Below are positions 55,013 through 58,000 of a stretch of DNA of 64,000 bases, one piece after another; within the stretch, counting starts at the first letter, position 1; every line of letters begins with the position of its first letter. Source of the DNA: an uncultured bacterium (lineage in GTDB: Bacteria > Margulisbacteria > WOR-1 > CAZGTC01); contig CAZGTC010000005.1 of NCBI GenBank assembly GCA_964528395.1, positions 80,840-144,839 of the forward strand, written 5' to 3'. Under the pieces are notes generated by a model. The model searched no databases. It was not told the origin of the DNA and was given only the letters and a program-made list of their open reading frames with translations. The translations under genes and the position numbers were made by a program.

Positions 55013-58000
55013 TTGGCTAAAAAAAAGAAAAATGACAGCGCCTGGCGCAGCACCTTCTTTTACTTTTTACTGCTATTAATTGCTTTATCCTTGTTCGCGC
55101 CGTTTTTTAGCGCTCCGCGCAATGTTGCTGAAGTTAATTTTTCTGATTTTCTCAACCAAGTTGACCAGGGCAAGATCAGCCAGATCACGGTTAAGGGCGA
55201 TATTGTAGAAGGGAAATATAATGATGGAAAAGCCTTTCGCACCCGAGCCCTAAATTATCCAAATCTAGTCCAAAACCTGCGGGAAAAAGGCGTGAGCATA
55301 AAAGTAGAAGAACCCGCAGATTCTTCTTGGTTTTTCAACCTGTTTGTCCAAATTCTTTTGCCTCTGCTTTTCTTTGTGGGATTATGGTTCCTAATCATGC
55401 GCCAGGCCCAGGGGGTCAATTCCCAGGCCATGTCTTTTGGCATGTATAAAGGCAAAGCAGTTACAAGCAAAGCAGAAGTTACGTTCAAAGATGTTGCTGG
55501 GGTAGATGAGGCTAAAGAAGAGCTTGAAGAAATTGTTGATTTCCTCAAGCACCCGGAAAAATTCCGCGCCCTAGGGGCCCGCATTCCGCGCGGCCTGCTT
55601 TTGGTCGGGGCTCCGGGAACCGGTAAAACGCTTTTAGCGCGGGCGATTGCCGGCGAAGCTGGAGTTCCGTTCTTTTCGCTTTCGGGTTCGGATTTTGTCG
55701 AAATGTTTGTCGGAGTTGGAGCTTCTGTAACCGGAGATACTCCAGTTTTGGTCAGAGATAAAGAAAAAACCAGATTAATTCCTATCTCTGAATTTGTTGA
55801 TAATTATTATGATCAAGATCAGCAAGGTTACCCAATCAAAATTGAAGGGATTGAAACATTAGGATTTCAAGGAAAAAATTCTAGCCAATACTCTTCAGAA
55901 GATAAATTTTTTGGAGGTTCTGCTTGGAAAAAAGTTGATGCGGTTTATCGGCATAAGGTAGAAAAAATTTATGAGATCCACTATTTAGGCGGAACGATTA
56001 GAACAACCGGAGATCACAGTATTTTTGTGCGCGATAAAAATAGGTTAAAGATAAAAAAAGCTTCCGAACTAAAAATTGGAGATAAATTAGTAAATCTTCC
56101 TTATAAAGTTAGGGGGAAGTTTTTGAAAGGCTTGGGAACTTTTCACCATGTAAGGGCACATAGTTTTCCTCAAGAGATTGAGCTGGAATTAGAAATGTGG
56201 GATGAATTGCCGCAGTGGTTTAATAAATATACTTATGCTGTTGCTAGTCAGGGGAAAATGGCTACCCAGGAAGTAGCTTCTAATGTAGGGGTTTCTTCTA
56301 CGACGATTTTAAACTGGCAAAAAGAAATTTGTTCTCCTGAATATCTTGCGAGAAGGTTAAAATATCCTAATTTACCGGAAAAAATCCTACTTACACCTGA
56401 TCTCTTAAAGCTTTTTGGTTATTATACTGCCGAAGGTAGGGCGGGAGGATATCTAGAGTTTATTTTTGGATCCCATGAGAAAGATCATATAAGTGAAATA
56501 ATAACATTAATGAAAAGTATTTTTCATTGCGAACCAAAACTAGAAGATACCCCAGATAATTCAACACGAATAAAATATTATTTTGCCCCTTTAGCGCATT
56601 TTTTTAGGAGATATTGCGGCACTGGAAGTGCGAATAAGCATGTGCCGGATTTTATTTGGGATTTGCCTTATAAGTATTTTCTGGCTTATTTAGAGGGGTG
56701 GGGGAATGGGGACGGCTATATAACCCAAGAGAAAAAACTGAGCATTACTTCTGTAAGTCATCAATTAATCCTTGAAATGAATTGGCTTTGTGCTATGCAT
56801 GGGATTAAGGCTGGAATTAGATCTGGAAAAAATAAATGCGGCAGGATATTAAAAAATCGACCTTTGCCTGAAACAAATTATTGGAATTTAATTATTGGAA
56901 AAACAGCGAATCCTTTTACGGATGAAAATATAGATTGTCCAGATCAAATGAAAAAACCATACGTTAAAAAAATTGTAATAAAAGATTATGATGGATTTGT
57001 TTATGATCTTTGTGGTTGTGAAAATGAGGCTTTTTTTGGGGGAGAAAAACCGATTTTATTACATAATAGTAGGGTTAGATCCCTATTTAACCAAGCCAAA
57101 AAACAAGCTCCAGCCATTATTTTTATGGATGAGATTGATGCCGTGGGCCGGCATCGCGGCGCAGGGTTGGGGGGCGGACACGATGAAAGAGAGCAGACTT
57201 TAAACCAGTTGCTGGTTGAAATGGATGGATTTGATGCTAATACCAATATTATTATTATCGCAGCAACCAACCGCCCGGATATCTTAGATCCAGCGCTGCT
57301 GCGTCCGGGCCGCTTTGACCGCACCATTACTATTGATAAGCCCGATATCAAAGGCCGCCGGGCAATTTTGGATATCCATGCCAAGGGAAAACCCTTGGGA
57401 AAGGACATAGATTTAGAAATTATTGCCCGCCGCACCCCGGGTTTTACTGGGGCAGACTTGGCGAATATTATGAATGAATCCGCAATTTTGGCTGCGCGCT
57501 GCAATAAAAAAGAAATCAATATGCCGGAGGCTGAAGAAGCGGTTGACCGGGTTATGGCCGGGCCGCAGAAAAAAAGCCGCGTGATGCAGGATAAAGAAAA
57601 AAAAGTTATTGCTTACCACGAAGTCGGGCATGCGCTTTTGTCCAAGCTCTTGCCCAATGTTGATTCAGTGCACAAAATTTCGGTTTTGCCGCGCGGCATG
57701 GCGCTGGGCTATACCCTGCAGCTGCCCGAGCAGGATAAGCACTTGCTTTCAAAATCCGAAGCTACAGAGCAAATTGTGGTGCTTTTGGGAGGGCGGGTGG
57801 CAGAGGAAATTGTTTTTGGCGAAATTACGTCAGGCGCGCAAAATGATTTAGAGAGAGCAACTGCCATGGCTAAAAAAATGGTTTGCGAAATGGGCATGAG
57901 TTCTTTAGGATTGCGCACTTTTGGCCACCGCGACCGCCAGGTGTTTTTGGGGCGGGATTTTGGGGAGACTAAAGATTATGGTGATTTGACTGCAGATGCC

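Follow-up and report, generated by a model that had tools for sequence, protein, structure and literature searches.

A probable class 1 intein with a LAGLIDADG homing endonuclease domain next to pore loop 1 of FtsH in a Margulisbacteria contig

We analyzed a 64,000-nucleotide stretch of contig CAZGTC010000005.1 (assembly GCA_964528395.1, an uncultured bacterium of the Margulisbacteria lineage), called the window below, in which the gene for the protease FtsH (ftsH) is interrupted by an in-frame insert of 448 codons. The insert is very probably a genuine class 1 intein with an embedded homing endonuclease of the double-motif LAGLIDADG type, and both protein splicing and DNA cleavage are predicted from its sequence and its modelled fold. 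It follows GVGA directly, ends in ILLHN and is succeeded by SRVR. A first-pass annotation of the window had proposed a Ser-starting intein with a LAGLIDADG endonuclease in the AAA module of FtsH at positions 55724-57067; these coordinates proved to be exact, and sequence motifs, profile hidden Markov models (HMMs) and the predicted fold agree with the proposal.

The host protein was identified as FtsH by an equivalog match together with the full set of FtsH_ext, Walker A, Walker B, sensor-1 and HEXXH M41 protease elements. The precursor matched the NCBIfam equivalog model TIGR01241 in two stretches, at 796.6 bits (cut-off 600), and Pfam located FtsH_ext, a divided AAA domain, AAA_lid_3, Peptidase_M41 and Intein_splicing (residues 256-685) in it. 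An identical 1050-residue product is on record at NCBI, ENA and Logan. When we removed the insert in silico, the remaining sequence was a 602-residue FtsH that aligned without gaps over the junction with Thermotoga maritima FtsH (7tdo, E 2.7e-208). The same gap-free alignment was obtained with P0223, a natural intein-free FtsH described below, so that excision of the insert restores a contiguous FtsH. The flanks are thus seamless, and the earlier statement that FtsH is collinear apart from a 448-residue in-frame insert holds.

The residues of a class 1 intein were all found: the nucleophile Ser1, T95 and H98 of block B, D428 of block F, the terminal pair H447-N448, and Ser at the +1 position. 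Blocks A and B (TTGDHS), two LAGLIDADG motifs and a terminal HN followed by Ser, as listed in the first-pass annotation, were each located, and the block F and G residues D428, H447 and N448 are present. The Pfam model Intein_splicing (PF14890) matched the insert alone at 46.6 bits (cut-off 35.8, E 4e-12); the NCBIfam model of the intein N-terminus, TIGR01445 (intein_Nterm), scored 31.1 (cut-off 24.5). A sequence search of the PDB gave PI-PkoII as the best match (E 1.8e-13), and TFIIB and VMA inteins were matched as well.

The endonuclease domain is indicated by two LAGLIDADG motifs, each of which closes on an acidic residue (E237 and D330). An AlphaFold2 model of the intein, built from a 12-sequence alignment, had a mean predicted local distance difference test score (pLDDT) of 85.2 and a predicted template-modelling score (pTM) of 0.82. 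The model shows a β-rich splicing domain, a four-helix segment with helices at residues 163-174, 181-188, 192-199 and 206-213, and two α-β-β-α-β-β units, the first with a closing helix, which form the half-domains of the LAGLIDADG core (residues 225-298 and 316-391). When we compared the model with the PDB using Foldseek, the top match was PI-PkoII (2cw7) with an E-value of 5e-22 and a template-modelling (TM) score of 0.64. It was followed by 7qsu, 7qss, 1dq3 and 1vde, all of which are intein-endonucleases, with E-values of 1e-17 to 1e-20 for TliVMA/PhoVMA, 6e-14 for PI-PfuI and about 1e-9 to 1e-10 for PI-SceI. Mini-inteins, free-standing LAGLIDADG enzymes (I-Tsp061I and I-WcaI) and the LAGLIDADG domain of WhiA took lower ranks.

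PI-PkoII (from Pol-2 of Thermococcus kodakarensis), the archaeal VMA inteins, PI-PfuI and PI-SceI likewise combine a HINT domain, a double-motif LAGLIDADG endonuclease and extra DNA-binding parts. However, they are only 10-18% identical to the FtsH intein in structural alignments, and they reside in DNA polymerase, V-ATPase or ribonucleotide reductase rather than in FtsH. The FtsH intein also differs from this group by Ser at both position 1 and position +1, and by a helical, helix-turn-helix (HTH)-like module between the splicing lobe and the endonuclease. In this module, alignment A1 shows a conserved GVSQxTVxNWQxG motif; the Pfam matches to HTH models of several families were all sub-threshold. 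From this motif and the modelled helices, we suggest that residues 163-213 may form an accessory DNA-binding element.

Table 1. Positions of the ftsH precursor gene, its intein and their motifs in the window (residue numbers are those of the intein where so marked)
Feature	Position	Strand	Basis or remarks
ftsH precursor open reading frame	55013..58165	+	TTG start, 1050 amino acids plus stop; N-extein, intein, C-extein
N-extein, residues 1-237	55013..55723	+	N-terminal hydrophobic stretch, FtsH extracellular domain, Walker A, pore-loop 1; ends with GVGA
Walker A / P-loop GAPGTGKT (residues 199-206)	55607..55630	+	aligned to T. maritima FtsH
Pore-loop 1 MFVG (residues 231-234)	55703..55714	+	V233 corresponds to T. 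maritima FtsH V235, the pore-loop tip
Intein (putative), 448 amino acids, class 1, Ser1 to Asn448	55724..57067	+	motifs, profile HMMs, predicted fold
Intein block A	55724..55753	+	Ser1 (TCT, 55724-55726), first nucleophile
Intein block B, TTGDHS (T95-x-x-H98)	56003..56020	+	motif
Four-helix linker module, intein residues 163-213	56210..56362	+	HTH-like motif at 56261-56323
LAGLIDADG homing-endonuclease core (predicted), intein residues 220-392	56381..56899	+	AlphaFold2 model, Foldseek, invariant residues
LAGLIDADG motif 1 (contains LFGYYTAEG)	56411-56440	+	E237 at 56432-56434
LAGLIDADG motif 2 (contains LEGWGNGDG)	56681-56719	+	D330 at 56711-56713
Intein blocks F and G, ending ILLHN	56999..57067	+	D428, H447, N448
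C-extein	57068..58165	+	opens with the +1 Ser (AGT, 57068-57070) and SRVR; runs to the stop codon
Walker B IIFMDEID	57116-57139	+	C-extein
Sensor-1 AATNRP	57260-57277	+	C-extein
PGRFDR	57305-57322	+	C-extein
Zinc motif HEVGH	57617-57631	+	C-extein

The insertion point lies between Walker A and Walker B, four residues past the pore-loop-1 tip V233. It directly follows the residues M231-F-V233-G-V-G-A237, and the SRVRxLF segment starts right after it; the earlier placement in the "sensor/Walker region" is therefore to be corrected to a site after pore-loop 1. In the precursor the insert splits the ATPase core: Walker A and the pore loop precede it and Walker B, sensor-1, the arginine finger and the protease domain follow it, so that an active AAA+ protease would not be formed. 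Judged from the AAA+ architecture, the unspliced precursor cannot be functional. The first-pass annotation had argued that the intein must splice because ftsH is essential. It is known that ftsH is not essential in every bacterium, and we regard the argument as a reasonable inference by which splicing is predicted. Inteins of archaeal LonB, chloroplast ClpP, RFC, MCM and DnaB also sit in conserved motifs of the ATPase domains of housekeeping proteins, but the site in the window FtsH adjoins pore-loop 1 and not the P-loop or Walker B.

The mechanism that we propose is conventional. First, Ser1 would undergo an N-O acyl shift aided by T95 and H98 of block B, and the +1 Ser would attack the ester in a transesterification. 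Asn448 would then cyclise with the help of H447 and D428 and free the intein, and an O-N shift would produce a native peptide bond, giving the 602-residue FtsH and a free 448-residue endonuclease. The free intein, with E237, D330 and Mg2+, would cut an intein-less ftsH across the sequence coding for MFVGVGA/SRVR (slashes mark splice junctions or insertion points throughout), and repair from the intein-containing copy would spread the element by homing.

In order to see how widely this allele occurs, one genome of each of 185,579 GTDB species was scanned with the intein, and 211 loci were obtained. Statements on individual loci refer to the best 80 of these 211 (L001-L080). In all 80, the host is FtsH, the position is the same (MFVGVGA/S...HN/SRVR), and the insert of 414-460 residues is in frame and free of stop codons; 79 of the loci are complete, while the contig of L015 ends ahead of the C-terminal junction. 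An intein-only search gave 70 clusters, nearly all of them metagenomic FtsH fragments with identical junctions, and an exhaustive search of representatives gave 51 clusters at E < 1e-30. Residue conservation was measured over 80 inteins, namely those of the 79 complete loci and that of the window. S1, H98, E237, K305, D330, D428, H447 and N448 are invariant in 80/80 and T95 is kept in 79/80, and all 79 complete loci have Ser at +1. Among these inteins, conservation in the endonuclease core is as high as in the splicing blocks, which speaks for selection that still maintains endonuclease function.

By their labels, the loci come from Margulisiibacteriota, Patescibacteria, Saccharibacteria, Eisenbacteria, Acidobacteriota, Chloroflexota, Actinomycetota, Gemmatimonadota, Planctomycetota, Proteobacteria and Verrucomicrobiota, and the allele has a cultured host, Glycomyces arizonensis DSM 44726. 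Here, we need to consider that the C-exteins of L003 (Chloracidobacterium) and L014 ("Clostridia") are 96% identical, and that those of L028 and L031, labelled Eisenbacteria and Verrucomicrobiia, fall with them in a range of 92-96%. Such identities across labelled phyla indicate that some labels of metagenome-assembled genomes (MAGs) are unreliable, and the phylum count needs care. The allelic inteins, for example those of the Margulisiibacteriota single amplified genome AM-326-D04, of G. arizonensis and of Patescibacteria and Eisenbacteria MAGs, share the insertion point, the length class and the invariant residues with the window intein. Nevertheless, they are 49-60% identical to it, and none is closer than 60%. 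Most of the allelic proteins go under the names AAA family ATPase or FtsH in the databases, and one under LAGLIDADG family homing endonuclease; some entries are already annotated as intein or LAGLIDADG. A scan of viral contigs gave only relatives of 21-35% identity, mostly in giant-virus MAGs (host genes not inspected). A phage vector was considered and rejected, since all viral relatives are far below the 49-60% identity of the FtsH inteins at the pore-loop-1 site.

A natural empty site was found in a near relative. When the spliced sequence was used as the query of a database search, P0223 was retrieved, a natural FtsH of 602 residues with no intein domain that is identical at 567/602 positions (94%) with zero gaps; the last 57 residues of the N-extein (residues 181-237) are identical in the two proteins. 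Its gene, L082:128-1936 (Logan SRR22387926), matches window positions 55013-55723 plus 57068-58165. Downstream, FtcD comes next in both loci and is followed by an oppositely oriented gene (with a NAGPA domain in the window lineage). The two ftsH genes are 86.6% identical at the nucleotide level, and their codon differences, 179 synonymous against 35 non-synonymous, indicate that the exteins evolve under purifying selection. In L082 the empty site reads GGAGCC/TCTAGG, and its longer form, ATGTTTGTAGGCGTTGGAGCC/TCTAGGGTAAGGAGC, is a candidate substrate of the endonuclease. Among the 120 nearest FtsH proteins, 118 are intein-free and about 600 residues long, the named ones belonging to Candidatus Margulisiibacteriota or Saganbacteria, by which the host of the window gene is probably placed in the same group. 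The distribution of the intein is thus patchy, and its absence from a relative with 94% identical exteins implies either a recent gain or a precise loss. The pair formed by the window gene and L082 is a ready natural substrate for splicing and homing tests.

We also observed a codon bias at this site. The +1 Ser is encoded by AGY in 68/80 intein-containing alleles, across genomes of widely differing GC content, while 4/5 intein-free Margulisiibacteriota alleles (L082-L086) use TCN (Fisher p = 0.004, a value that does not account for phylogeny). One possible cause is that the flank is co-converted in the course of homing; another is that the endonuclease prefers certain targets.

Several observations weigh against a splicing, mobile intein, as follows. 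First, the Pfam model LAGLIDADG_3 scored 21.3 bits on this intein, just below its cut-off of 22.5; the precomputed annotation of many allelic homologues contains PF14528. Second, block F contains an invariant Glu435 (57026-57028), where many inteins have His. Third, Cys430 (57011-57013), at F:6 and two residues past the catalytic Asp, is kept in 79/80 inteins. Fourth, the GC content of the intein is only 1.3 standard deviations below the mean of the window (39% GC), within the lowest 10% of same-sized slices. Fifth, splicing and cleavage are predictions, made from sequence, for every one of the allelic inteins. Finally, the identities of inteins and exteins in pairwise comparisons of 59 loci with clean C-exteins correlate with r = 0.73, a rough measure that is distinct from phylogenetic reconciliation; this indicates a largely vertical history, under which the endonuclease need not still be active in this lineage.

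The conserved Cys430 raised the question of a class 3 intein (WCT). Class 3 inteins have Cys at block F:4 and Thr at G:5, usually without an N-terminal nucleophile. In the window intein the residues that we take, by the established intein block nomenclature, to be F:4 and G:5 are Asp428 and Leu446, and Ser1 is present; a class 3 mechanism was therefore excluded. We also considered a foreign origin on the basis of base composition. The intein has 34.5% GC against 47% in the exteins, and 25% against 47-48% at third codon positions (GC3). This contrast is real, yet it is unexceptional within the window, and no sign of recent transfer was drawn from it.

The vertical component of the history bears on the most serious alternative, namely that the intein splices while its endonuclease is inactive or immobile in this lineage, so that it is a fixed vertical passenger, kept because imprecise loss would destroy ftsH. 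The nearest intein (60% identity) is that of L001, a Margulisiibacteriota single-cell genome; its full-length exteins are likewise the nearest (C-extein 73.6%), and it shares the downstream FtcD with the window. Like the correlation above, this speaks for a passenger, and so do mini-inteins of about 195-216 residues without homing endonuclease at the same pore-loop-1 site (P0093, P0098, P0101 and P0049), which show that the endonuclease can decay. However, E237, D330 and K305 are retained in every full-length allele, the conservation of the endonuclease core equals that of the splicing blocks (a pattern to be expected only under selection for endonuclease function), and the intein-free relative with 94% identical exteins implies recent gain or precise loss. 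In addition, in 32% of the pairs among the 59 loci, similarity is higher between the inteins than between the exteins. For example, the intein of the Gemmatales locus L010 is 71% identical to those of Acidobacteria-type loci (e.g. L014), while the exteins are 54% identical, which points to horizontal transfer. Based on these comparisons, we suggest that the sequences fit a long vertical persistence punctuated by horizontal transfer, and we consider an immobile passenger possible but doubtful. The mini-inteins fit the decay stage of the homing cycle. One without endonuclease was also seen at the sensor-1 site described below (P0109), and mini-inteins over both sites are about 180-216 residues long.

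The position of the insert invites another explanation, in which splicing is regulated, gates the activity of FtsH and is kept for host benefit. A site adjoining the pore loop ensures an inactive precursor, the intein persists vertically in several lineages, and regulatory splicing has been reported for other inteins (PMC11409957). On the other hand, no sensor is indicated by the sequence, and with Ser at positions 1 and +1 the usual redox or disulfide switches are excluded, Cys430 aside. Moreover, most close relatives lack the intein, a distribution like that of a selfish element. We therefore regard regulated splicing as improbable.

Even less probable is that the insert does not splice and that this ftsH is inactivated or repurposed, with another genomic ftsH supplying the function. 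Paralogues of ftsH occur in many bacteria (PMC517821), and the genome extends beyond the 64 kb analyzed, which leaves room for a second copy. Within the window, however, no second ftsH was seen, the 3.15-kb reading frame is intact and holds all splicing residues, the exteins are under the purifying selection described above, and the same stop-free architecture recurs in 80/80 genomes. We regard this explanation as very unlikely. Finally, an assembly chimera or another autoprocessing domain is barely conceivable: the assembly is of the metagenome type, and HINT domains also occur in bacterial intein-like (BIL) and Hedgehog proteins, to both of which there were weak Foldseek matches, but the 1050-residue product is on record in three databases and its architecture recurs in over 80 independent genomes, among them that of a cultured isolate, the highly conserved motif site, the +1 nucleophile and the terminal HN are typical of inteins and atypical of BILs, and intein-endonucleases are better structural matches by many orders of magnitude. 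A class 1 intein with a homing endonuclease thus remains the preferred reading.

FtsH carries inteins at other sites as well. Inteins at the sensor-1 site (AA/S...HN/TNRP) were observed in P0016, P0017, P0022, P0023, P0027, P0077 and P0079 and in the C-extein regions of L034 and L056. They belong to a related lineage, with 40-46% identity over the full length and near-identical junction motifs (AA/SVTGDTP...NEAFFGG..P.LLHN/TNRP), but they are inserted 67 residues downstream, in AATNRP, and have Thr at +1. P0071, L034 and L056 have inteins at both the pore-loop-1 and the sensor-1 sites, and double-intein FtsH proteins of about 1500 residues exist in public data. The presence of related lineages at two sites suggests, from sequence comparison, that the element may have moved between sites of one AAA module. 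Two more sites are occupied by unrelated inteins that start with Cys1 (P0072 and P0077, at about residues 205-640, and the C-extein regions of L006 and L066). One of these sites is in the P-loop (GTGK/C...HN/TLLARA), and the other precedes Walker B (NAP/CLTGDT...HN/CIIFVDEID). With the P-loop, pore-loop-1, pre-Walker B and sensor-1 sites, at least four intein sites in FtsH are represented in public data. The AAA module of FtsH is thus a multi-site intein target, which fits homing into the most conserved ATPase motifs.

Putative fungal hosts were also observed. Yme1-like AAA proteases of Coemansia spiralis (P0046, KAJ2692609) and Kickxella alabastrina (P0087 and P0221, KAJ1894252 and KAJ1899481) appear to carry a homologous intein at the same site, with the flanks SEFDE[IM]YVGVGA/S...HN/SKVRSLF, that is 29-35% identical to the window intein. 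A 2018 survey of eukaryotic inteins mentions neither Yme1 nor AAA nor Coemansia. It could be speculated that the FtsH and Yme1 inteins form an uncatalogued lineage in two domains of life, which moved between the pore-loop-1 and sensor-1 sites and into nuclear Yme1-like genes of kickxellomycete fungi and which is kept in some hosts as a conditional-splicing switch gating a membrane protease; we consider this whole scenario unlikely.

The first-pass annotation had suggested that this may be an unreported allele. In print this appears to stand, since full-text literature searches, which covered the main text of the major survey, retrieved no description of an FtsH intein, while in databases the allele is common, with the 211 GTDB species genomes given above. 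Novikova et al. 2016 (PMC4760082) list LonB with 10 inteins and describe a bias to ATP-binding hosts, and FtsH is found neither in their top-15 tables nor in their main text. Likewise, FtsH and Yme1 are unmentioned in the main text of the intein surveys PMC4760082, PMC5784728 and PMC10710043. A literature search for inteins together with the candidate phyla radiation gave nothing relevant. Several papers were considered as precedents and rejected. The paper on jumbo phage MIJ3 describes an intein in PolB and, apart from it, an FtsH-like gene, the Methylococcus paper only ftsH paralogues, and the Floydiella paper an intein in RPB2, and in the prasinovirus and Brachyspira papers intein and FtsH are named separately. 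The host and the site are thus apparently undescribed in print and yet widespread in public genomes.

With FtsH, a membrane-anchored quality-control protease joins the hosts of inteins, which are otherwise mainly enzymes of replication, repair and nucleotide metabolism. An all-serine (Ser1/Ser+1) intein with a known native context could serve protein engineering, and the four sites, the double-intein FtsH proteins, the sensor-1 lineage, the fungal Yme1 alleles and the AGY bias could interest specialists beyond this single locus.

As for the neighborhood of the gene, no tRNA, rRNA or Rfam matches were found in the 64-kb window, and Pfam searches of nine large open reading frames nearby revealed no taxonomic marker. 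HEAT-repeat proteins are encoded at 7226-10399, 17325-18947 and 21016-22857, a 1191-residue protein with a C-terminal Ser/Thr kinase domain at 12340-15915, and a 1593-residue protein with fn3, Big and FlgD-Ig domains at 42921-47702 on the minus strand.

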